Positions 28,260-38,867 of a DNA stretch of 64,000 nucleotides are shown piece after piece (position 1 is the first letter of the stretch; the number at the start of each line of letters is the position of its first letter). The notes beneath the pieces are model-generated. The model was given only the letters and a program-made list of their open reading frames with translations, searched no databases and had not been told where the DNA came from. This stretch comes from Porifericola rhodea. GTDB taxonomy: Bacteria; Bacteroidota; Bacteroidia; Cytophagales; Cyclobacteriaceae. The DNA is taken from assembly GCF_030506305.1 (NCBI RefSeq), contig NZ_CP119421.1:176354-240353 (forward strand), in the 5' to 3' direction. Made by a program: the position numbers and the translations under genes.

Positions 28260-29039
28260 TTAGCGTTCGGTCAGTCTCTTTTCAATTTCAGCCATTTTTT
28301 GTTCTAGCTTGGATACTCTCTCTTCAATTAATAGTGGTGGGTTGAGATAAGTACTATAGAAACCTTCTACTTTCCACAACTCTGATACCTCTGTACTGTC
28401 TACTACTATAGGGGGGTGCTGCGAATTATCTGCTACAAAATATAACTGTTCTTTCGTGTGTTTGTATCGGCGAACATAAATTCCTTCCTGTACCACCAGC
28501 ACATACACTTGCCCTTCTTTCAGCTTATCTTTAAAATCTACTTCTAGGGGGCAGCATGAGAGCACATCGCCAACATGCAGGCCTGTATCCAGCCATCGCA
28601 TGCTATCGTCCTGTACCTCAAAAGCCCGAGACTTTTTTTGAGTAGTGTCCGGCAAACGAACAAAAGGCAGACGGTTGATAAAATCCTTATTCTGATGGTT
28701 TACGACATACTCAATATACTGCGAACTTCTTACTAAAGGTGTGGCATCTTCCCGACTATCTTTATCTACATCTGCCTCAGCAGGCTTGGCACTCTTCTCA
28801 TGTTTGAAGAGATCAAATTTGAACAGCTCATTTACCGTCAGTTCTTTAGTTAACAATATGTCTATAGATAAGCCAAACTTTTGAGCAATCTGTATGATAG
28901 TTTCAATCTTGGGTTCGGCCCGCTCTTCTTCATAAGAACCTACTGTTCCTCTGGATAGATTAAACATTTCTGCAAAAGCAGCCTGACTAATCTTCTTCAC
29001 TGCTCTTATTTTCTTAATGTTTTTTCCGATTGTAGACAT
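28260..29039 (-). CDS. XRE-family HTH transcriptional repressor with a C-terminal LexA/CI-like S24 peptidase domain
   Basis: N-terminal HTH 'IKKIRAVKKISQAAFAEMFNLSRGTVGSYE'. The C-terminal region has the S24 catalytic Ser motif 'VQDDSMRW' and a downstream 'VYVRRYK' lysine. The ATG is at 29037-29039. The gene is divergent from the PspA module. Confidence 0.7.
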   Translation of the reverse strand: MSTIGKNIKKIRAVKKISQAAFAEMFNLSRGTVGSYEEERAEPKIETIIQIAQKFGLSIDILLTKELTVNELFKFDLFKHEKSAKPAEADVDKDSREDATPLVRSSQYIEYVVNHQNKDFINRLPFVRLPDTTQKKSRAFEVQDDSMRWLDTGLHVGDVLSCCPLEVDFKDKLKEGQVYVLVVQEGIYVRRYKHTKEQLYFVADNSQHPPIVVDSTEVSELWKVEGFYSTYLNPPLLIEERVSKLEQKMAEIEKRLTER

Positions 29040-29103
29040 ATTTATTTGCAAATTTTATTAGATATGCTAACTTTATTAGCAATTATACGTAAACTATGTA
29101 TAA

Positions 29104-29514
29104 ATGACAAATACAATGAACACCTACTACACTAAAGTTAAAAACTACCTTACCGAACTCAATTACGAAATAGTTGAGGAAAACGAAGCTGAGGGCATAC
29201 TCATCATAGATAATGAAGAGACCGGCGTAAGCCATATGGTACTATGCTGTGCCGAGCCCATATTAATTATTGAGCAGTATCTCTGCGAAATTAAGCAGGT
29301 AAGCCTGGAGACTTATCGCTTACTACTACAAAAAAACCGGGATATTATTCATGGGGCCTTTGCCCTGGATCAGTCTGGTACTAAGCTCATCTTTAGAGAT
29401 ACCCTGGTACTAGACACACTGGACCTTGATGAACTGGAATCAACTTTCAATTCCTTAGGGCTGCTATTGAGTGAGTTTACTCAACAAATTATTGAAATAT
29501 CTAGTGAAAATTAA
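29104..29514 (+). CDS. Small acidic cytoplasmic protein, YbjN/DUF2170-like (putative chaperone or regulator fold)
   Basis: 136 aa. The size, charge and order resemble the E. coli yjfI-yjfJ arrangement, where a YbjN-like protein precedes a PspA paralog. I could not compute this similarity, so it is an inference. Confidence 0.35.
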   Translation: MTNTMNTYYTKVKNYLTELNYEIVEENEAEGILIIDNEETGVSHMVLCCAEPILIIEQYLCEIKQVSLETYRLLLQKNRDIIHGAFALDQSGTKLIFRDTLVLDTLDLDELESTFNSLGLLLSEFTQQIIEISSEN

Positions 29515-29546: not shown

Positions 29547-30260
29547 ATGAACATTTTCAGAAGAATACTCAAAGTAGGACAAGCAGAAGCACATTCTGCC
29601 ATCAACCACCTGGAAGACCCTATTAAACTTACTGAACAGGGAATTCGCGATATGCGAGGCGATCTTGATAAAGCCTTACACGCTCTGGCTGAAGTGAAAG
29701 CACTAGCTATACGCACACAACGTGAACTTAACCAACAGCAAGATGTAAGCAAACAATATGAGCAGAAGGCAATATTGCTGCTTCAGAAAGCTCAGAAAAA
29801 TGAGTTAGATGCCACGGAGGCTGATCGTCTAGCAGCAGAAGCTTTAAATAAAAAAGAGCATGCTGATCAACAAGTAAGGAATCTGGCTACAGAAAAGAAA
29901 AAATATGATGAATCCGTGTTAAAATTGGAACATAATATTAATACGCTAAAATCAAATATTAGCCAGTGGGAAAATGAACTTCGCACACTCAAAGCTCGCA
30001 TGAAGGTAAGTACTGCCACTAAAACAATGAATAAGCAGTTGGCTAAAATTGATACTTCCAGTACCGTTTCTATGCTGGAGCGCATGAAAAATAAAGTAGA
30101 GCAGGAAGAAGCTTTAGCACAGTCATACGGAGAAATAGCTGCTGAACCTAAGTCACTGGACGATGAAATTGACCAGGCATTGGAGAGCGAGCAGGCTTCC
30201 TCCTCTCAAAAGCTACAGGACCTTAAACAAAAACTAGGTATTAACCCTAACACTCCATAG
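29547..30260 (+). CDS. pspA: PspA/IM30 (Vipp1) family protein, bacterial ESCRT-III superfamily
   Basis: 'MNIFRRILKVGQAEAHSAINHLEDPIKLTEQGIRDMRGDLDKALHALAEV...' aligns in register with the E. coli PspA N-terminus ('[37 protein letters not shown]'). It is 237 aa and predicted all-alpha coiled coil. Confidence 0.8.
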   Translation: MNIFRRILKVGQAEAHSAINHLEDPIKLTEQGIRDMRGDLDKALHALAEVKALAIRTQRELNQQQDVSKQYEQKAILLLQKAQKNELDATEADRLAAEALNKKEHADQQVRNLATEKKKYDESVLKLEHNINTLKSNISQWENELRTLKARMKVSTATKTMNKQLAKIDTSSTVSMLERMKNKVEQEEALAQSYGEIAAEPKSLDDEIDQALESEQASSSQKLQDLKQKLGINPNTP

Positions 30261-30262
30261 TC

Positions 30263-30886
30263 ATGAATGATCTTTTCAACGCCGCCATTGCCGCACCTAA
30301 CTTATTACCTACTGCCTTACTTATTTTTGTAATGGTATACTGGATAATTGTAATCATTGGTGCTGTTGATGTAGATGCCATAGACATAGATGTGGATATG
30401 GACACGGACGTTGATGGAGAGATTTCGGTATCCTGGCTTAATAATTTATTGTCGTTTTTTAATTTAGGCCAGGTACCTTTCATGATTTTCATGACCTTTC
30501 TGGTAGTCCCCTTATGGTCAGGCTCGGTCATGACCAATTATTATCTGAACAATCAATCTCTGCTACTTGGATTACTAATCCTTGTTCCTCTTCTTATATT
30601 AAGTGCATTTATAGCTAAGGTTGCTACTCAGCCTTTTACGAAGCTTTTCAACCATCTGGAAAACAGCATTGATGGTGGAGAAAGACAAATCGGTAAAATA
30701 TGCACGCTTATTACCTCAGCAGATGATGCCAGAGCCGGGCAAGCTAAAGTTGATACCGGTGGGGCTCCGCTCCTACTCAACGTAATTACTGACGAAGGCA
30801 CCAGCATGTTCAGTGGCGACACCGCCATAGTACTGGAGTATTTGGCAGATAGAAATGTCTACCTCATAGAGCCTTACATTGCATAA
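30263..30886 (+). CDS. YqiJ/NfeD-like inner-membrane protein: TM helices, an acidic DxD repeat, and a C-terminal OB-fold
   Basis: N-terminal TM segments, the segment 'DVDAIDIDVDMDTDVDGE', and a C-terminal beta-rich segment 'GKICTLITSADDARAGQAKVDTGGAPLLLNVITDEG...AIVLEY'. It sits immediately upstream of the flotillin gene, as in E. coli yqiJK. Confidence 0.6.
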   Translation: MNDLFNAAIAAPNLLPTALLIFVMVYWIIVIIGAVDVDAIDIDVDMDTDVDGEISVSWLNNLLSFFNLGQVPFMIFMTFLVVPLWSGSVMTNYYLNNQSLLLGLLILVPLLILSAFIAKVATQPFTKLFNHLENSIDGGERQIGKICTLITSADDARAGQAKVDTGGAPLLLNVITDEGTSMFSGDTAIVLEYLADRNVYLIEPYIA

Positions 30887-30916: not shown

Positions 30917-33085
30917 ATGGAAAAACAGATGCTCATTGCGCTGCTAGTGATCGGCGCAGTATTTTTCGTGGGCTTAATAGCCTTCGTTATCAAAATGTAC
31001 AACAAGGCTGTGCAGGGAGAAGCACTGGTTCGTACCGGACTAGGCGATGTAAAGGTTTCTTTTTCAGGAATTTTCGTAGTCCCAGTCTTGCATAAGCTGG
31101 AAGTCATGGACATCACTTTAAAGTCCATGGAAATTAACCGTATGGGTAAGGATGGCCTTATCTGTCGTGACAACTTAAGGGCAGATATCAAAGTGTCATT
31201 CTTTATCAGGGTAAATAAAACTACCGAAGATGTGGTGCATGTGGCACAATCAATAGGCTGTGCTCGTGCCTCTGATAAGGAGCAGCTACAAATGCTATTT
31301 GATGCTAAATTTTCTGAAGCGCTTAAGACTGTAGGAAAGCATTTTGAGTTTGTAGAATTGTACAACTCAAGAGCTAAATTTAAAGAAAAAATTCTAGAAG
31401 AAATAGGTACCGACCTTAATGGTTATATCCTGGATGACTGTGCCATAGACTATCTGGAACAAACGCCTATTGAGCACCTCAACACAGAAAACATACTGGA
31501 CTCAGAGGGTATCAAAAAAATTATTGATCTTACTGCCCAGCAAAAAATTCAATCTAACCTGATTGAAAATGAAAAGAAAAAGACCTTAAAAAAGCAGGAT
31601 GTAGAAGCTGAAGAAACCATACTTGAGCTAGAGCGCCAACTTATAGAAAAGCAGGAGCGTCAGCAACGTGAGGTATCTAACATACGTTCTCGTGAGGCTG
31701 CTGAGAGAGAAAAGGTACGACAGGAAGAACACAAAAAAGCGGAACAGGCACGTATTCTTACCGAAGAAGAAATTGGTATTGCCGAACAGAACAAAGATCG
31801 TCAGGTACTGGTAGCTCAGCGTAATAAGGAGCGTGCAGACGCCATAGAAGTAGAAAGAGTAGAGCAAGCTCGTATGCTGGAAGCTACCGAGAGGGAGCGC
31901 GTAGTTGAGCTGGCCAGAATAGAGAAGGAAAAATCACTGGAAGAGGAACGTAGAAATATACAGGAAGTGATACGTGAGCGAGTAGTGGTAGAGAAATCTA
32001 CGGTAGAGGAAGAAGAGAAAATTAAAGACACCAGGGCAATGGCTGAAGCTGAACGAAACAAGCAGGTGGCCATTAAAAATGCTGAACGTGATGCTCAGGA
32101 AGCTTTGGTTAAAGAAATTAAGTCTGCCGAAGCCGCCAAACAGGCTTCTGAACATAGAGCGAAACAGCTGATGATAGATGCCCAGGCAGAAGAGGATTCT
32201 GCAGCACATCGCGCCAATGCTATCAAAACTATGGCCGAAGCTGAAGCTGCTCAAAAAGCTGCTATTGGTCTGTCAGAAGCACAGGTTATGGAGGCTAAAG
32301 CAGCTGCCCGCGAAAAAGAAGGCGAAGCCGAAGCAGGTGTCATTGAAGCACAGGCAGAAGCGGATGCTAAAGGAATTAGCATGCGTGCCGAAGCTCAGGC
32401 TCAGGCTGACGAAAAGCTGGGGCTGGTAGCGGCAAAAGTAAACAGAGAGAAAGGTAAAGCAGAAGCTGAAGTAATTCAGGACAGAGCTACTGCCGAAGAA
32501 AAGCAAGGTATGGCACAGGCACGCGTACTGGAAGAGAAGATGACTGCTGAAGCTAAAGGTATACGCGAAAAAGCTCAGGCAATGCAGGCACTGGATGGTG
32601 CAGGTAAAGATCATGAAGAGTTCAGACTCAGACTAGAAACCGAGAAAGTGCTGGAAATGGCAAAAATCAACATTCAGAAAGATATAGCCGATGCGCAGGC
32701 TCAGGTAATAGGTGATGCACTGAAATCTGCCAGAATAGACATTATTGGCGGTGAAACCATGCTGTTTGATCAGATTATGGGCTCAATTGCCAAAGGTAAA
32801 GCAATAGATGGTATGATCGGAAACAGCCAGGCACTTACTGGTCTGAAAAACAATCTGCTGGGCAACGGAAATGGTAGTGCCTCTTTTGGAGATAACCTTA
32901 AGAAGTTTATAGGCCAATTTGGAATGAACTCAGAAGACCTGAAGAACCTTACGGTCTCTGCACTACTCATGAAAATGATGGGCAAAACTGAGCAACCTTC
33001 GCTTAAAGATGAGCTAAACAAACTTTTGGCAGTAGCACGTACCGCCGGAATGGCAGACGAACCTGTCCAGAATATCAAACTTTAA
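30917..33085 (+). CDS. Flotillin-like SPFH/Band-7 protein (YqiK/FloT type) with a long EA-rich coiled coil
   Basis: N-terminal TM plus an SPFH domain ('ALVRTGLGDVKVSFSGIFVVPVLHKLEVMDITLKSMEINRMGKDGLICRDNLRADIKVSFFIRV'), then an Ala/Glu/Lys-rich coiled coil of roughly 370 aa. Confidence 0.8.
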   Translation: MEKQMLIALLVIGAVFFVGLIAFVIKMYNKAVQGEALVRTGLGDVKVSFSGIFVVPVLHKLEVMDITLKSMEINRMGKDGLICRDNLRADIKVSFFIRVNKTTEDVVHVAQSIGCARASDKEQLQMLFDAKFSEALKTVGKHFEFVELYNSRAKFKEKILEEIGTDLNGYILDDCAIDYLEQTPIEHLNTENILDSEGIKKIIDLTAQQKIQSNLIENEKKKTLKKQDVEAEETILELERQLIEKQERQQREVSNIRSREAAEREKVRQEEHKKAEQARILTEEEIGIAEQNKDRQVLVAQRNKERADAIEVERVEQARMLEATERERVVELARIEKEKSLEEERRNIQEVIRERVVVEKSTVEEEEKIKDTRAMAEAERNKQVAIKNAERDAQEALVKEIKSAEAAKQASEHRAKQLMIDAQAEEDSAAHRANAIKTMAEAEAAQKAAIGLSEAQVMEAKAAAREKEGEAEAGVIEAQAEADAKGISMRAEAQAQADEKLGLVAAKVNREKGKAEAEVIQDRATAEEKQGMAQARVLEEKMTAEAKGIREKAQAMQALDGAGKDHEEFRLRLETEKVLEMAKINIQKDIADAQAQVIGDALKSARIDIIGGETMLFDQIMGSIAKGKAIDGMIGNSQALTGLKNNLLGNGNGSASFGDNLKKFIGQFGMNSEDLKNLTVSALLMKMMGKTEQPSLKDELNKLLAVARTAGMADEPVQNIKL

Positions 33086-33190
33086 GCATGATTACCATGA
33101 TGATGAACTGAGAGGCATAAGGGCGGAGTTTTCCGCTCTCTTGCTTTCTCCTACTGACCCTTCCATTGTATAGCTCCTTAATTTCAGACC

Positions 33191-36100
33191 ATGCAAAACC
33201 CTATAGTACAGCCTGAAAACATCAATATAGAAAGCGGCACCTATGAAGTGCTTCAAAAGAGATTAGCCCAAAGCCGGCAGCTACTTACCGAAAAGCTTAA
33301 CTCTCTAAACGAAGCTCGCAAATCGGTTTTTGGTTCATTGGAAACCAATTTACTTACCACCGAGAGGATACACACAGCAAATAACTGTATCCCATATGAC
33401 ATGGTCTCGCTCGGAGGACAGTTTATTTTTGGCTATAATGTGCACCTCGGACTCAAAAATCAGATAGAACTCTCCGATGTTTTTAGCATCTACACATATC
33501 ATGAGCACAGCTTTCATGAGCAAAGCCTGGCGTTAGTTGAAGATGAAACTTTTGTCAATGATTTTCAGAAGCTATACAAATATTATAAAGACACCATTTT
33601 TACCCGCTTTGTCAGCTCGGGGCCTTACCTCTACATGGTTTTCAGAATCAGCAAAGGTTTGGATGACATTAAAGCATTTAAGTGGCAGGTTCAGGGGGAT
33701 AAATTAGTCTACCTGGATGACCGAAGCGAGCTGGAAATAAAACAGGCTATTCAGCATGAGTTTCGCTGGCAAAGAGTCTCCAGAGACGCACACCGCAAAG
33801 GAAAACATCCACACATTTCAGTTGAAGATAAAGTCTTCGTTGAGACACTAAACGGAAAGCTCACCATAAAAATAGAAGACAATACTGATTCTGGTCATGG
33901 TATATATGAGGAGCCTGTAGATGATCCAGATCAAACCCTGGACGACGTTGAAATCTACTACAGTGTGTTAGAAAACCTGGTACTCCTAAAAATTCGTCCG
34001 TATCAGGAGAAGCAGTTCCGCTACCTCATCTTCAATACAAGACTACAGGAGGCCCGACGAATAGATGCAATAGAAGAAGCCTGCCTGCTCCTACCCGACG
34101 ACCAGGGAGTATTGTTTCCAAACGGCTATTATCTTCAGACCGGAGCCACCAAACTGTTTGAAAATGAACTACCTGACCTGAAGTTTGAAAAGAAGGTGCT
34201 CTCTCCAAATGGAGAAGATTTTCTATATGTATTTTACAATCGTGAGCAAGGTGTATATCAGCTACTTTTTTATAACCTGATCACTCAGCAGATGGGTACT
34301 CCTATCGTATGTCATGGTTACGCTATTTTTGATAATGGCGAACTCTGCTATTTTAATGCGGACCAGGAACCTAAAAAACACCACGCCATTCGTATCTGGC
34401 AAACTCCTTTTGTAGGACCTAATTATACCCTTGCACAGCAAAGTGACTCTTATCTGTATAAAGTTGGTAATAAGGATATTGTACGTCTTATGGCCGAAAG
34501 CCAGTTACTTATTAAGCTTATTGATAAGGGAGAAAACTACGAAAACCTCTACCTGGAATTAAAAAAACAATCTTCTACCATACTGGAAGCGTATTACTGG
34601 CTGGATAGAGCTGATGCTTTTCACATTAACGAACCAATACAGCAAATTTGTGATACTGCGGCTTCCGCGATAGATGAGTATGAGAAGGTTGTAAGTATTC
34701 GTAAGCAGACACACGAGCAATTATCCAATGTTAGCAAAAGTAGTGAGGTACTCCTCAAAAGTATACGCACCGCTCGTTACGCTCACATTCAGGAGTTTGT
34801 AGACCACCTTTCTGAACTTAGAAAACTTAGAGGTGAGATTGTATCGCTTCATGAGCTACGTTATATCAACAAACAGAAAGTAGAAGATTTAGAGCAGCAG
34901 GTAGAGGAAAGAAACGAAAAGCTGGCCCATCATTGTATTCGCTTTTTGTCACAAGAAGCGTCTCTGGATCCTTACCAAAATAAAATTGAAAAAATACAGG
35001 CAGAAATAGACCAGCTGAAGAAAGTGGTAGATGCAGAAAAGGTGGAAGCAGATATTAAACAAAGCTCGGCTGACCTGGAAATGCTGGTTGAAATAGTAAG
35101 TAACCTTAAAATTGAGGATGCCACACTCACTACTCAAATTATTGATCGTATTTCGGTGCTGTTTGCGGAATTCAATAAGATTAAAGCCGCACATAAGCGA
35201 AAACGCAAAGAATTATTAGGCAAAGAGGGAAAAGCAGAGTTTGAAGCACAAAAAAAGCTGGTCAATCAGGCCATGCTCAACTATCTGGATGTTGCAGATA
35301 CCCCCGACAGATGTGATGAATACCTGAACAAGCTGATGGTACAGCTGGAAGAACTGGAAGCTAGATTTGCTGAATTTGATGAGTTTGTTAGTCAGATCAA
35401 TGACCTGCGGGAGGACTTGTACAATGCCTTTGAAGCCAGAAAAGTACAGCTGGTAGAAGCTAGAAATAAACGGTCAAACACTCTGGCACAGTCAGCTGAA
35501 CGAATACTCAAGGCCATACAAAACCGTGTTAAAAGCATCAGTGAGATAAGTGAACTGAACGGCTACTTTGCCAGTGACCTCATGGTTGAAAAGGTCAATC
35601 GTATAGTAGCTGAGCTCAAAACACTACAGGATACTACCAAAGCAGATGATGTATTGAGCCAACTCAAAAGCCTGAAAGAAGATACTGTTCGCCAGATCCG
35701 CGACCGTTCGGAGATTTATGCTGAAGGAGGTAATACTATCCGCCTTGGCAACCATAGTTTTCTAGTAACTACCTCTAGCTTGGCTCTTACTATCCTCGTC
35801 AAAAACGGACAGCTGTATTATCACCTTAGTGGCACCAACTTTTATGAGCCAATCTTAAATAGTGAGCTTTCTGCTTATAAGCCCTACTGGGAACAGGCCA
35901 TACTATCTGAAAACGAGGAGGTATATCGCGCTGAATATTTGGCTTACTTACTTTTTAAAGCTTCTGAGCGCAGAGAAACTGCCCCCCTACACCAACTGGC
36001 CGATCTAGACGAAAAATCACTCCTTACAGTAGTGCAGGAGTTTATGGCTGGCCGATACGAAGAGGCTTATGTAAAAGGTGTGCATGACCATGATGCTATG

Positions 36101-38074
36101 CATATTCTAAAAAACCTATTGCAAATATACCAGTCGGCTGGCCTTTTAAGGTTTCATTCGGCTGCCAGAGTATGTGCCGCACTCTGTTGGAAATATTTCC
36201 TGAAAAAAGAACAAAAGGACTTTATCAACCATCAGCTTAAGGGTGCCGGCGCTATTCTCAAAGTTTTTCCAAACAGCGCTGTTTTTTCTGAGCTACTTGA
36301 GTTATTGCAATCAGAAATATCTCAATTTCTTAAAGCCTACCCCCTATTTACAGAATCTCTTTCAAAAGAAGCGGCTCTGTACCTCTTTGAGGAATTAAGT
36401 AGTGATGATGACTTCATATTCTCTCAACAGGCAAAGACAAAACAAGAAGCATTTGAGAAATACCTGGACAACAACAAAAATCGCAAAGCATATGAACAAT
36501 CAGTACAGAGCCTGAAGGCACATCCTTTTACTCAGTTTGAGCTAATCAAAAAGTGGGTATCATCCTGGACACAGGAGTATGGCCATGAGGGTGTAGCAGT
36601 AGATGAAGTAGCCTTCCTACTGTTTAGCGATCATGACACTTATCAGACACATAACACAGAACTTAGCATAGCACTTAGCGGCTTACAAGGCAATCACTCC
36701 TTACTCAATGAAGGCAACTATCAGCTTGACTACGTCGCGTTTATGCAGAAACTAAGGGTTTTTGCAGAAGAAGCCGTACCTGACTTTAAAGCTTTTCAGC
36801 AGTTGAAAAAGGAGTTGACGCAGCAGTTTGAAGCAGAACTGAAGCTAGATAGCTTTAAACCTAAAGTCATGAGCGCTTTTGTCCGCAACCGACTAATTGA
36901 CAAAGTCTACTTTCCTCTCATCGGGGCTAACTTAGCCAAACAAATTGGCGCAGCTGGTGCTGATAAACGCACTGACCGTATGGGCATGCTACTTCTGATT
37001 TCGCCCCCTGGCTATGGTAAAACGACATTGATGGAATACGTAGCCAACCGCCTGGGTATCATTTTCATGAAAATCAACGGGCCCGCTATCGGACATACCG
37101 TCACTTCAGTAGACCCGGAAGCAGCGCCTAATGCAGCAGCCAGAGAAGAGCTACATAAGCTCAACCTGGCCTTTGAAATGGGCGATAACGTTATGATTTA
37201 CCTGGATGACATTCAACATTGCCACACAGAATTTTTGCAAAAATTTATCTCCCTTTGTGATGCTCAGCGAAAAATTGAAGGGGTATACAAAGGTAAAAGC
37301 AAAACCTACGACTTCCGTGGAAAGAAGGTGTGTGTAGTTATGGCCGGAAACCCCTATACTGAAAGTGGAGAAAAATTTCAGATACCCGACATGCTTTCTA
37401 ATCGTGCAGATATTTATAATCTGGGTGATATTATTGGAGACTCTGCCGATGATTTTAAGCTGAGCTATATTGAGAACAGTCTTACCTCAAACCCTGTCCT
37501 TCATAAGCTCTCCAGCAAAAGTCAAAAAGATATTTATGCTATGATCCGTATCGCTGAAAGTGGAAGTCGCGAGGGAATAAGCTTTGAAGCTTCACATGCA
37601 GTTGAAGAAGTTAACGAATATGTAGAGGTGCTGAAAAAAATGATAACTGTCAGAGATGCTGTGCTTCGTGTAAATACGGAATATATACGCTCCGCAGCTC
37701 AGTCAGATGAGTACAGAACCGAACCTGCCTTTAAGCTACAGGGCTCTTACCGTGATATGAACAAAATGGCAGAAAAAGTACAGCCTATTATGAATGAGAA
37801 AGAGCTGCAAACCTTAATTATGTCGCATTACGAAAATGAGGCCCAGACCTTAACAAATGGCGCAGAAGCCAATCTTCTCAAATTTAAAAAGATGAGCAAT
37901 CAACTTAGTGATGCAGAAGCCAAACGCTGGGAGGAGATTAAAAGTATTTTCGCAAAAGCGCAGCAAACCAAGGCTTATGGTAATGGTGTAGGCCCGGCGG
38001 TAGAAAAAATGAATGATATTTCTAACAGTCTTAAGCTCATTGCCCAACATTTAACAAAAAACGGACAGGCATAA
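33191..38074 (+). CDS. Giant (1627 aa) multidomain protein with no recognisable N-terminal family, a long coiled coil, and a C-terminal AAA+ (MoxR/AAA_5-like) ATPase
   Basis: Walker A 'ISPPGYGKTT' at about aa 1272 (nt 37004-37027). Walker B 'MIYLDDIQH' at about aa 1335, followed by 'EFLQKFISLCDAQRKIE' and 'VCVVMAGNP'. A heptad-rich coiled coil runs across about aa 550-850. Public annotations of this protein type often read 'DNA repair ATPase'. Confidence 0.7.
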   Translation: MQNPIVQPENINIESGTYEVLQKRLAQSRQLLTEKLNSLNEARKSVFGSLETNLLTTERIHTANNCIPYDMVSLGGQFIFGYNVHLGLKNQIELSDVFSIYTYHEHSFHEQSLALVEDETFVNDFQKLYKYYKDTIFTRFVSSGPYLYMVFRISKGLDDIKAFKWQVQGDKLVYLDDRSELEIKQAIQHEFRWQRVSRDAHRKGKHPHISVEDKVFVETLNGKLTIKIEDNTDSGHGIYEEPVDDPDQTLDDVEIYYSVLENLVLLKIRPYQEKQFRYLIFNTRLQEARRIDAIEEACLLLPDDQGVLFPNGYYLQTGATKLFENELPDLKFEKKVLSPNGEDFLYVFYNREQGVYQLLFYNLITQQMGTPIVCHGYAIFDNGELCYFNADQEPKKHHAIRIWQTPFVGPNYTLAQQSDSYLYKVGNKDIVRLMAESQLLIKLIDKGENYENLYLELKKQSSTILEAYYWLDRADAFHINEPIQQICDTAASAIDEYEKVVSIRKQTHEQLSNVSKSSEVLLKSIRTARYAHIQEFVDHLSELRKLRGEIVSLHELRYINKQKVEDLEQQVEERNEKLAHHCIRFLSQEASLDPYQNKIEKIQAEIDQLKKVVDAEKVEADIKQSSADLEMLVEIVSNLKIEDATLTTQIIDRISVLFAEFNKIKAAHKRKRKELLGKEGKAEFEAQKKLVNQAMLNYLDVADTPDRCDEYLNKLMVQLEELEARFAEFDEFVSQINDLREDLYNAFEARKVQLVEARNKRSNTLAQSAERILKAIQNRVKSISEISELNGYFASDLMVEKVNRIVAELKTLQDTTKADDVLSQLKSLKEDTVRQIRDRSEIYAEGGNTIRLGNHSFLVTTSSLALTILVKNGQLYYHLSGTNFYEPILNSELSAYKPYWEQAILSENEEVYRAEYLAYLLFKASERRETAPLHQLADLDEKSLLTVVQEFMAGRYEEAYVKGVHDHDAMHILKNLLQIYQSAGLLRFHSAARVCAALCWKYFLKKEQKDFINHQLKGAGAILKVFPNSAVFSELLELLQSEISQFLKAYPLFTESLSKEAALYLFEELSSDDDFIFSQQAKTKQEAFEKYLDNNKNRKAYEQSVQSLKAHPFTQFELIKKWVSSWTQEYGHEGVAVDEVAFLLFSDHDTYQTHNTELSIALSGLQGNHSLLNEGNYQLDYVAFMQKLRVFAEEAVPDFKAFQQLKKELTQQFEAELKLDSFKPKVMSAFVRNRLIDKVYFPLIGANLAKQIGAAGADKRTDRMGMLLLISPPGYGKTTLMEYVANRLGIIFMKINGPAIGHTVTSVDPEAAPNAAAREELHKLNLAFEMGDNVMIYLDDIQHCHTEFLQKFISLCDAQRKIEGVYKGKSKTYDFRGKKVCVVMAGNPYTESGEKFQIPDMLSNRADIYNLGDIIGDSADDFKLSYIENSLTSNPVLHKLSSKSQKDIYAMIRIAESGSREGISFEASHAVEEVNEYVEVLKKMITVRDAVLRVNTEYIRSAAQSDEYRTEPAFKLQGSYRDMNKMAEKVQPIMNEKELQTLIMSHYENEAQTLTNGAEANLLKFKKMSNQLSDAEAKRWEEIKSIFAKAQQTKAYGNGVGPAVEKMNDISNSLKLIAQHLTKNGQA

Positions 38075-38138: not shown

Positions 38139-38867
38139 TTGAATTATTTCATATATATGAAGGTGAATACTACGAGCAATCATTCCGAAGCAATATTTTT
38201 AAGTCGCTGGCCACGCTTTTTTGCGGTAGCCTCCTGTATCTTTATCGGAATATTTCTGCTTTTGCCTTCCAGCTTACTTTTAAGCACTTTATTTACTCTT
38301 TTTTTTTCTGCTTTTATTTATACCGGGAGGTGCTTATGGAAACCATTAGGCACTTGGGGTGGTGCGGCTAATGCAATTACTGCACTCAGAACTTTAGGCA
38401 TACTGCTGTTGCTGTTTTTTCAGGCAGAGTTGCCTCCGGCAGCATTTTTTGTTGTAGGAATACTGATACTAATCGCCGACGGACTAGACGGTTATTATGC
38501 CCGCAAATATAATACAGTATCTGCCTTCGGAGATTTATTTGATAAAGAAACTGACGCTTTCTTTGTACTGGCTTTTTGTATTATCCTGATCAAAAAAGAG
38601 CTGATAGGTATGTGGGTAGTTTGGCCTGCCCTACTACGCTACATCTTTGTATTGGTACTTCACACCTTCCGTATACAACATATAGTTTTGTCCTACTCTT
38701 TTCGCAGGCAGTTTATAGGCATGTGGTTTATGGGTACTATCATGGCCTGTTTTGTGCTGCCCAGACCTGTTTATACCGCAGGGATGATTTTCGCTACAGC
38801 TATGCTAGCTTATTCTTTTATGAAAGATACTTTTCTGATGTTAAAACTTAAATCAGATCAGGGGTAA
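38139..38867 (+). CDS. CDP-alcohol phosphatidyltransferase family membrane protein
   Basis: Signature 'DGLDGYYARKYNTVSAFGDLFDKETD' (D-G-x2-A-R-x8-G-x3-D-x3-D) in a polytopic membrane protein. The start is uncertain; there is an alternative ATG at 38157. Confidence 0.7.
   Translation: MNYFIYMKVNTTSNHSEAIFLSRWPRFFAVASCIFIGIFLLLPSSLLLSTLFTLFFSAFIYTGRCLWKPLGTWGGAANAITALRTLGILLLLFFQAELPPAAFFVVGILILIADGLDGYYARKYNTVSAFGDLFDKETDAFFVLAFCIILIKKELIGMWVVWPALLRYIFVLVLHTFRIQHIVLSYSFRRQFIGMWFMGTIMACFVLPRPVYTAGMIFATAMLAYSFMKDTFLMLKLKSDQG

Follow-up and report, generated by a model that had tools for sequence, protein, structure and literature searches.

Bacterial flotillins are widespread and their working is poorly understood; to our knowledge, no energy-consuming factor has been described that assembles, disassembles or services them. 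Known pairings of an SPFH membrane scaffold with an AAA+ ATPase include HflK/C-FtsH and QmcA/YbbK-FtsH; the AAA+ partner in both, FtsH, is a protease of the classical clade, anchored in the membrane and encoded apart from the SPFH genes. In Vps4/ESCRT-III (Snf7) and the PspA-associated AAA+ systems, an AAA+ protein is encoded with a member of the PspA/ESCRT-III superfamily, Vps4 being a classical-clade protein with an MIT domain. The pspA-ydjGHI operon of Bacillus subtilis combines genes for PspA and an SPFH protein (YdjI) and has a link to membrane stress, the SPFH protein linking PspA to the membrane (PMC8581546), and SPFH-NfeD operons have also been described (PMC2636767). The closest description is a computational one, in which Ravi et al. 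2024 (PMC11237479) recorded a 'Betapropeller+Coiled-coil+AAA-ATPase' architecture together with an operon of CesT/Tir, PspA, YqiJ/YuaF, Band-7/flotillin, ATPase and divergent cHTH+protease genes, exemplified by Dokdonia donghaensis, and drew from this context an inference of ATP-driven membrane-polymer remodelling.

The same gene set as in the Dokdonia donghaensis operon was found in Porifericola rhodea, within the window (the whole stretch of 64,000 nucleotides that was analysed, positions 176,354 to 240,353 of contig NZ_CP119421.1), where the ATPase has the same domain order, length and motifs. The features of the locus are as follows.

28260-29051, minus strand: divergent LexA/CI-like repressor with HTH_3 and Peptidase_S24 domains (Pfam)
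29067-29079, no strand assigned: CTAACTTTATTAG, an exact CTAA-N5-TTAG in the divergent promoter region, predicted operator of the Bacteroidetes LexA type
29104-29514, plus strand: first operon gene, encoding a CesT/Tir-like (YbjN-type) protein with a chaperone fold (CesT_Tir_1, E 1.3e-48; Ravi et al. 2024)
29547-30260, plus strand: PspA/IM30 family protein (Pfam PF04012, E 3e-47)
30263-30886, plus strand: YqiJ/YuaF (NfeD2)-like membrane protein with three TM-like segments (Pfam YqiJ_N, E 0.001)
30917-33085, plus strand: YqiK-type (SPFH2) flotillin, 722 residues (BLASTP against E. coli YqiK, 1e-46)
33120-33139, plus strand: core of a hairpin in the flotillin-ATPase gap, flagged by a terminator-like scan, with a poor T tail
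33191-38074, plus strand: DUF3686-DUF7902-AAA+ protein, 1627 residues, single open reading frame with an ATG start (PGAP name 'DNA repair ATPase')

The single reading frame of the ATPase stood as given in the preliminary description, and the possibility of a gene fusion or frameshift artefact was ruled out by full-length collinear homologues everywhere (more than 3600), thousands of proteins typically 1600-1900 residues long. In a set of 120 matches, coverage was 99-100% and identity 53-75%; the Catalinimonas niigatensis protein is 75% identical, and members from other phyla are 40-56% identical. A first set of homologues came from Bacteroidota, Planctomycetota, Verrucomicrobiota, Desulfobacterota, Clostridia, Omnitrophota and Kiritimatiellota, and further ones from Pseudomonadota, Actinomycetota and Deinococcus, giving at least ten phyla with collinear full-length homologues. 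The counterpart on the Pseudomonas plasmid pQBR103 is 40% identical over the aligned length, the alignment extending to residue ~1480.

Although the first 540 residues had been regarded as unrecognisable, DUF3686 (PF12458) was matched essentially end to end at residues 32-469 (602.6 bits, cut-off 25; E 4.6e-181; profile positions 2-448 of 448), and DUF7902 (PF25472) was matched within the helical region at residues 591-674 (91.9 bits against a cut-off of 26; E 2.9e-26). Both are domains of unknown function. With these two domains, a single C-terminal AAA+ module and collinear similarity throughout, the protein is an orthologue in the DUF3686-DUF7902-AAA+ family, from which it differs in nothing essential. 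No characterised family matched the full length of the ATPase in Pfam, profile-model and PDB sequence searches, and the relatives of known structure found by sequence were confined to ~35-75 residues at the P-loop. Searches of the literature on DUF3686/PF12458, on 'DNA repair ATPase' with flotillin and on MoxR with SPFH returned no experimental work on the family. In kind, the findings bring nothing new: Pfam and Ravi et al. 2024 (PMC11237479) already contain the family and its context, and the novelty implied earlier falls away, since the N-terminal half lies in two Pfam DUFs and that study published both the architecture and the operon. What is new is the MoxR-type assignment, the spectrin-like nature of the 'coiled coil', the quantified linkage and the LexA-type operator.

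The domains of the ATPase, all on the plus strand, were delimited as follows.

33284-34597, plus strand: DUF3686, residues 32-469 (Pfam)
residues 15-47, plus strand: N-terminal helix, grouped with the next domain under DUF3686
33347-34402, plus strand: beta-rich, propeller-like domain, residues 53-404, part of DUF3686
34451-35716, plus strand: spectrin-repeat-like helical rod, residues 421-842, which includes DUF7902
34961-35212, plus strand: DUF7902, residues 591-674 (Pfam)
35846-36640, plus strand: all-alpha middle domain, residues ~886-1150 (predicted structure, pLDDT ~90)
36878-37699, plus strand: MoxR/AAA_5-type AAA+ module, residues ~1230-1503 (Walker motifs seen; type from the predicted structure)
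37706-38071, plus strand: C-terminal helical domain, residues 1506-1627 (predicted structure)

A canonical beta-propeller is only weakly suggested for the N-terminal domain, and a profile of this domain found no relative among solved structures. Residues ~845-1235 matched no Pfam family or PDB sequence, profile search included, in agreement with the earlier statement that residues of about 850-1250 resemble nothing recognisable; a Pfam scan of the middle domain in 12 phylum-diverse members returned scattered single-member noise only. This domain is the least conserved region of the ATPase (31% identity) and carries an invariant patch, Y960-x-K-G-V-H-D-x-D968. The C-terminal domain is longer in other phyla, where homologues reach 1750-1980 residues, some of them with ankyrin repeats (for example P0272). 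Matches to clathrin and IFT-A had raised a protocoatomer-like reading (propeller plus solenoid), which was not adopted, as global TM scores were 0.09-0.16 and the helical part looks spectrin-like rather than solenoid.

The nucleotide-binding module contains the following motifs.

36998-37027, plus strand: Walker A, ISPPGYGKTT, residues 1270-1279
37196-37219, plus strand: Walker B, IYLDDIQH, residues 1336-1343
residues 1349-1357: LQKFISLCD segment
37328-37354, plus strand: sensor 1, VCVVMAGNP, residues 1380-1388
37400-37423, plus strand: candidate arginine finger, NRADIYNL

All of the motifs named in the preliminary description were located, the Walker A requiring a correction of its coordinates only, as the interval 37004-37027 covers just PPGYGKTT. 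By profile the module is scored about equally by AAA_5 (PF07728; 26.3 bits, cut-off 22) and PF00004 (28.1 bits, cut-off 21.2), both passing. The predicted structure is closest to members of the MoxR/AAA_5 clade and has, as they do, a pre-sensor-1 beta-hairpin between Walker B and sensor 1. On the structural model, the module is of the MoxR type (CbbQ-NorQ-dynein-midasin clade), as had been proposed. GYGKTT and DDIQH are intact here and invariant in the family, and K1277, D1339, D1340, N1387 and R1405 are invariant across homologues. Identity across phyla is 78% in the AAA core and 31-54% in the remainder of the ATPase. As the catalytic residues are invariant and the core is the best-conserved part, the active site appears to be under selection, and the intact motifs predict a catalytically competent ATPase.

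The same conservation bears on whether the protein might be principally a structural tether, with the spectrin-like rod and propeller forming a skeleton beneath the membrane, by which flotillin assemblies are connected or kept apart, and the AAA+ module acting as no more than a nucleotide-regulated oligomerisation hub. Invariant catalytic residues in an ATPase core that is by far the best conserved region suggest instead that hydrolysis is central to function, and the low global TM scores to coat proteins likewise lend a skeletal role no support; we consider it quite improbable.

CbbQ and NorQ are the closest structural relatives of the AAA+ module. CbbQ acts on Rubisco and NorQ on nitric oxide reductase, as activases or maturases, and the canonical arrangement for MoxR ATPases includes a partner protein with a VWA domain. 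These stand-alone proteins of ~260-300 residues differ from the ATPase described here, which shares only 14-15% identity with them, adds ~1230 N-terminal residues and reads DD in Walker B where they have DE; a domain scan of the ATPase, the operon genes and the scanned flanking genes contained no VWA domain. The kinship with activases and maturases would fit a MoxR-style maturation chaperone, which would leave flotillin itself untouched and for which a flotillin microdomain would be the platform for inserting a cofactor into a membrane client or activating it. Flotillins are commonly seen as scaffolds for client proteins, and the propeller and the alpha domain with its invariant KGVHDxD patch could bind such a client. 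Against this, scans of the loci and the window revealed neither a conserved client gene nor a VWA adaptor in the module, and the only universally linked genes are those for flotillin and NfeD2, so that a maturation role seems possible and on the whole unlikely.

This linkage was quantified among the 65 related loci that have enough upstream DNA. In 62 of them the ATPase gene is closely preceded, on the same strand, by a gene for a YqiK-type flotillin (the exceptions are L012, L024 and L026), and 58 have a YqiJ/NfeD gene upstream as well. In about half, the gap between the flotillin and ATPase genes is below 100 nt or the genes overlap. The association was expected from the preliminary description to be worth following outside Bacteroidota, and both homologues and linkage were found to hold far beyond that phylum: the YqiJ-flotillin-ATPase triad recurs on pQBR103, where the YqiJ-like protein has a counterpart matching at 1e-18, and a Streptomyces plasmid carries the flotillin-ATPase pair preceded by a small ORF. 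In P. rhodea, the ATPase gene is likewise directly downstream of the YqiJ/YuaF-like and flotillin genes on the same strand, as in an NfeD2-SPFH2-AAA+ module. The 722-residue flotillin gave no Pfam match; a TM scan placed one N-terminal TM segment in it, which would leave its large body in the cytoplasm, and no TM-like segment was seen in the ATPase, a soluble protein. Unlike FtsH, the ATPase is thus soluble, MoxR-type, without a protease domain and operon-linked to an SPFH2 flotillin. Compared with Vps4, it has flotillin as its universal partner, PspA being linked in 21 of the 65 loci, in Bacteroidota only, plus pQBR103. The B. subtilis pspA-ydjGHI operon differs in having no AAA+ ATPase, no NfeD/YqiJ gene and an SPFH protein of another subfamily.

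A giant ATPase so highly conserved and, across ten phyla or more, so firmly tied to flotillin and NfeD is an obvious candidate for the factor that services flotillins. We propose, with about even confidence, that it uses ATP to remodel membrane assemblies of flotillin/PspA and forms the third, cytoplasmic component of a conserved three-gene YqiJ/NfeD2-flotillin-ATPase module. The AAA+ modules would assemble as a ring, as in MoxR proteins, while the propeller and rod would attach it to the flotillin (SPFH) oligomer in the cytoplasm or to the NfeD partner; ATP hydrolysis could then remodel the membrane scaffold or the clients held by it, through assembly, disassembly or turnover. The topology fits this model, given an ATPase without TM segments and a flotillin with a single one and a presumably cytoplasmic body. 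Which of the partners serves as substrate cannot be read from gene order, and the lack of a VWA-domain gene in the scanned neighbourhood and the three loci with no flotillin gene beside the ATPase gene speak against the proposal.

In Bacteroidota, P. rhodea included, the module is joined with the CesT-like chaperone and PspA in one operon and may act in a PspA-type membrane-stress or repair response, a role suggested by the presence of those two genes. The intergenic gaps involving them are 2-32 nt in P. rhodea. Among related loci, the CesT-like/PspA pair and the divergent LexA-like S24 repressor are confined to Bacteroidota (PspA is also on pQBR103), and the divergent orientation of the repressor is kept in about 20 Bacteroidota loci. 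Its true start is probably the ATG at 29039, and its translation contains a DDSM serine motif and a downstream lysine. The CTAA-N5-TTAG box, a motif defined for the non-canonical LexA of Bacteroidetes (Sanchez-Osuna et al. 2021, PMC8565304), lies 25 nt ahead of the operon's first gene. Of 20 Bacteroidota loci, 11 had an exact copy in the equivalent intergenic interval (+/-150 nt), which amounts to 37-fold enrichment (Poisson P ~5e-20). These sequences suggest that a self-cleaving repressor of the LexA (S24) type represses the operon and would do so from the box in the shared promoter region. Such an operator suggests an unexpected regulatory bridge in Bacteroidota between an S24-repressor (SOS-like) circuit and the PspA/flotillin membrane system. 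It was also noted that a LexA-type box would fit a DNA-damage role.

A more specific version of the remodelling proposal can be offered tentatively, as something we would not expect to hold in full: the ATPase would be a dedicated assembly/disassembly machine for flotillin (SPFH2) cages, as Vps4 is for ESCRT-III, and in Bacteroidota the whole CesT-PspA-NfeD-flotillin-ATPase operon would form a regulon reserved to a LexA-type S24 paralogue, through which DNA damage or prophage induction pre-emptively switches on membrane protection.

As the preliminary description had remarked, homologues are automatically named 'DNA repair ATPase', and the name has spread over thousands of genomes without support. 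Read literally, together with the Pfam description of DUF3686, it would make the protein a SOS-induced repair ATPase acting on damaged DNA, and the promoter region shared with the LexA-type S24 gene and carrying the box in the Bacteroidota operon could be cited in its favour. However, a domain scan of the ATPase found no DNA-binding, nuclease, helicase, ABC-head or SMC/Rad50-type domain, and RuvB models reached just 22-26 bits (cut-offs 282-299) over ~50 residues round the P-loop. Furthermore, the conserved neighbours are all membrane proteins, and loci of phyla other than Bacteroidota have no LexA-like gene beside them. The main text of the SOS-regulon study (PMC8565304) has no PspA, flotillin or ATPase, and none of this kind is listed as a regulated gene in the supplements. 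The 'DNA repair' product name is unsupported, and a repair function is highly implausible.

The junction between the flotillin and ATPase genes is an insertion hot spot, with unrelated genes inserted in many loci, which indicates that strict co-translation is not required. A conserved extra gene at this position was considered and rejected, the inserts elsewhere being unrelated small lipoproteins, DUF559-like genes and IS200-like transposases; the downstream CDP-alcohol phosphatidyltransferase was likewise dismissed as a part of the module, being kept in 0 of 80 loci. The hot spot, the copies on megaplasmids and the CI/LexA-like repressor beside the operon, which could couple it to prophage induction, might be taken to indicate an anti-phage or conflict system in which the NTPase senses infection or membrane attack (by holins, for example) and responds through flotillin and PspA, and the combination of NTPase, repeat domain and long helices loosely recalls conflict-system NTPases. 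This is nevertheless a doubtful interpretation to which we attach little probability: PADLOC gave no significant match (the best for the ATPase was mad8, E 0.0092, 13.5 bits), PspA matches in PADLOC-DB were coiled-coil noise, and no effector domain (nuclease, protease, TIR or pore-former) was present. The surroundings in the window are ordinary chromosomal genes, and cross-phylum conservation at the level of the AAA core is unlike that of fast-evolving defence genes.

In P. rhodea, the flotillin gene directly precedes the ATPase gene with exactly the 105-nt gap first described (33086-33190), and the weak hairpin reported there is present. Across the whole window, Rfam contained no matching RNA family. 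The gap folds at -26.1 kcal/mol, a value equalled by 9 of 200 shuffles (z -1.76), and the hairpin was accordingly rejected as a significant structure; it may act as a weak attenuator or terminator.

Analysis of the window confirmed that positions 33191-38074 (+) hold a real gene, the sole long frame at that place, encoding the 1627-aa ATPase. The Walker A motif ISPPGYGKTT was present as first described, at aa 1270-1279 (nt 36998-37027, its start having been placed 6 nt late), and the other motifs named, IYLDDIQH (aa 1336-1343), LQKFISLCD (aa 1349-1357) and VCVVMAGNP (aa 1380-1388), were all found. The N-terminal half, which had been called unrecognisable, was recognised by Pfam as DUF3686, matched end to end (aa 32-469, E 4.6e-181), and DUF7902 (aa 591-674, E 2.9e-26). 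In the ATPase region, PF00004 (28.1 bits) and AAA_5 (26.3 bits) scored about equally, while NCBIfam and PDB sequence searches returned only the P-loop surroundings of RuvB, Cdc48 and Rix7, far under family cut-offs, and no TM-like segment was seen in the protein. Two AlphaFold models, built from 60-sequence alignments drawn from several phyla, covered aa 1-880 (pLDDT 85.5) and aa 840-1627 (pLDDT 86.4).

Predicted structural units of the ATPase (AlphaFold models)
aa 15-47, N-terminal helix
aa 53-404, beta-rich domain of about 28 strands
aa 421-842, helical region of 13 helices
aa ~849-887, small beta unit
aa ~891-1145, all-alpha domain
aa 1151-1180, second small beta unit
aa 1181-1217, long helix
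aa ~1230-1503, AAA+ module
up to aa 1627, helical C-terminal domain

It was from this predicted structure that the proposed MoxR/AAA_5-like type drew its support. For the middle domain (residues ~845-1235), a 12-sequence profile gave no PDB sequence match and Pfam, run on each of the 12, yielded unrelated single matches only, in agreement with the earlier remark that residues of about 850-1250 match nothing recognisable. This otherwise weakly conserved alpha-helical domain carries an invariant Y960-x-K-G-V-H-D-x-D968 patch (aa 960-968, window 36068-36094), which may serve in binding or catalysis. When 12 phylum-diverse sequences were compared with the window protein as reference, conservation differed sharply among the domains, identity being 78% in the AAA core, 54% in the beta domain, 44% in the helical rod and 31% in the alpha middle domain, and K1277, D1339, D1340, N1387 and R1405 showed no variation among homologues. 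By its sequence and models, the ATPase is shown to be a soluble, catalytically intact MoxR-type AAA+ protein with large domains of protein-interaction type. A chiefly structural role as a spectrin-like tether, suggested by the spectrin-like rod and by matches to scaffold proteins, was considered improbable.

Over 3600 relatives came from a search of 5.8 billion proteins; all of the top 120 had 98-100% query coverage and 53-99% identity, the closest named one being from Catalinimonas niigatensis (75%). Named entries were usually labelled 'DNA repair ATPase', the rest being called 'AAA family ATPase' or 'MoxR-like ATPase'. Searched by themselves, the first 560 residues retrieved 775 clusters at 50% identity. 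Genome scans located the ATPase in Bacteroidota, Planctomycetota, Verrucomicrobiota, Desulfobacterota, Clostridia, Omnitrophota and Kiritimatiellota, and also in Pseudomonas, Proteus, Vibrio, Halomonas, Streptomyces, Nonomuraea and Deinococcus. Relatives from other phyla were likewise full length in a profile search, many reaching 1750-1980 aa through C-terminal extensions, some of which bear ankyrin repeats. The conservation pattern marks a single gene that is strongly selected for an active ATPase; a fusion artefact was ruled out, since relatives are collinear and full length in several phyla. Extensions of 120-350 aa were seen on homologues outside Bacteroidota and Clostridia (P0272 and P0364 from Desulfobacterales, P0290, P0298 and other Planctomycetota/Verrucomicrobiota proteins), two of them with ankyrin repeats (in P0272 at aa ~1790-1880), and point to a C-terminus that binds different partners in different lineages. 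One homologue from a eukaryotic proteome set (P0355, 1711 aa, source 'eukprot') shared its domains and 51% of its residues with the window protein, and is probably bacterial contamination, possibly transfer.

The ATPase gene is the last of five consecutive plus-strand genes separated by 32, 2, 30 and 105 nt.

Genes and sites around the ATPase gene
28260-29051 (-), HTH_3 + Peptidase_S24 repressor, divergent from the operon across a common short intergenic region
29067-29079, CTAACTTTATTAG, exact CTAA-N5-TTAG box between the S24 repressor and the first operon gene (29040-29103)
29104-29514 (+), CesT/Tir-like (YbjN-type) protein, E 1.3e-48
29547-30260 (+), PspA/IM30, E 3e-47
30263-30886 (+), YqiJ/YuaF-like protein, 3-TM
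30917-33085 (+), flotillin, YqiK-type, 722 aa
33120-33139, hairpin core in the flotillin-ATPase gap, terminator-like with a poor T tail by consensus scan
33191-38074 (+), ATPase

The upstream neighbour had been called a flotillin, and its alignment to E. coli YqiK (1e-46 across 475 residues) established it as YqiK-type. This protein had zero Pfam matches even at E 10, no match among PDB sequences and only FloT at 15.8 bits in NCBIfam; standard domain annotation would miss this flotillin subfamily. The 105 nt between the flotillin gene and the ATPase start codon were as described and do contain a weak hairpin, the folding energy of the gap being ordinary (z -1.76, equalled in 9/200 shuffles). 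A CDP-alcohol phosphatidyltransferase gene (phospholipid synthesis; 38139-38867, same strand) lies 64 nt past the ATPase gene with no terminator-like site between them, and was conserved in 0/80 related loci.

The window's neighbour genes were compared against all ORFs of 80 related loci, and linkage was counted in those that had 3 kb or more of upstream DNA, 65 in all. A flotillin gene lay within 3 kb upstream of the ATPase gene, in the same orientation, in 62 of these 65, a YqiJ-like gene was present in 58/65 and PspA in 21/65, the PspA loci (with the CesT-like gene and divergent S24 repressor) being confined to Bacteroidota among the 65. No flotillin or YqiJ-like gene adjoined the ATPase gene in loci L012, L024 and L026, with 7-10 kb of upstream DNA. 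The linkage is kept outside Bacteroidota, including on Pseudomonas and Streptomyces plasmids; in the latter a small unidentified ORF precedes the flotillin and ATPase genes, and in plasmid pQBR103 the triad of YqiJ-like, flotillin and ATPase genes comes after a YjfI-PspA-polyamine gene set. On this Pseudomonas fluorescens SBW25 megaplasmid (L082, 84437-97641) a single long same-strand array runs YjfI, PspA, rhomboid, DUF2491, DUF350, DUF1190, glutathionylspermidine synthase, YqiJ-like, SPFH, ATPase, and is a polyamine-type PspA operon joined with the triad on a mobile replicon. Where flotillin-ATPase gaps were long, the inserted genes were mutually unrelated; this junction is an insertion hot spot (L002, L010, L013, L015, L018, L030, L031, L035, L062), with inserts of 0.6-2.3 kb differing by lineage (small lipoprotein, DUF559-like and IS200/REP-type transposase-like genes). 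A conflict or defence role, to which the architecture, the neighbouring repressor and the plasmid copies might point, appeared improbable, as the window context gave no significant defence-system match and consists of ordinary chromosomal genes; Rfam matches in the window were also absent.

Exactly this operon class has been described by Ravi et al. 2024 (PMC11237479), who found shortened flotillin-YqiJ-ATPase operons to be more widespread and proposed a chaperone-like role in assembling membrane-associated complexes; in their table, Dokdonia donghaensis too has a divergent 'cHTH+Protease' gene. An earlier paper (PMC2636767) had defined SPFH2-NfeD2 (YqiK-YqiJ) operons, and in B. subtilis PspA is linked to the membrane through an SPFH protein (PMC8581546). 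The literature searched contained no laboratory study of any protein in this ATPase family. The preliminary description was largely correct, and its interpretation right on the type of ATPase and on the tie to flotillin, but the protein is typical of a family that Pfam already lists, and its architecture and operon context have been published.

The link of the ATPase gene to a flotillin, which has a single N-terminal TM segment, and to its NfeD partner is nearly invariable. In the reading favoured here, the AAA+ modules would assemble as a ring, the propeller-like domain and rod would dock on the flotillin/NfeD assembly, and ATP hydrolysis would drive remodelling of this scaffold or its clients, with the ATPase in Bacteroidota acting jointly with PspA in membrane protection; taken whole, this was judged to have an even chance of being right. 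A MoxR-like maturase acting on a client, with flotillin as platform, would fit the nearest structural relatives, which are activases, and was thought unlikely.

CTAA-N5-TTAG is the experimentally shown operator of non-canonical Bacteroidetes LexA (PMC8565304). The 64 kb held three matches, the number expected by chance, so that the count by itself is meaningless. Across 20 Bacteroidota loci, 16 exact boxes fell in the 9.9 kb surrounding the corresponding intergenic stretch, with 11 of the 20 having a box there (L006, L031, L032, L040, L043, L058, L061, L065, L070, L071, L077), against only 21 in the remaining 480 kb, a 37-fold enrichment (Poisson P ~5e-20); the exact box was absent from Hymenobacter-type loci. 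Many Flavobacteriaceae have GGA-type and CTAA-type paralogues, of which the GGA-type governs the SOS regulon (PMC8565304 and supplements). This raises the possibility, as a lead only, that the CTAA-type repressor beside the operon is a dedicated regulator. The conserved box suggests that a LexA-type repressor capable of self-cleavage, possibly such a dedicated paralogue, governs the membrane-stress operon; PMC8565304 mentions neither PspA nor flotillin. A DNA repair role as annotated, for which the name and the LexA-type box alone speak, was held to be very improbable. A second exact box, absent from the window, occurs about 170-215 nt away within the LexA-like coding region of many Flavobacteriia loci (L032 4746, L040 4899, L043 5462, L058 5567, L065 5571, L077 4781, and others), and could be an auxiliary operator or a mere conserved codon pattern.
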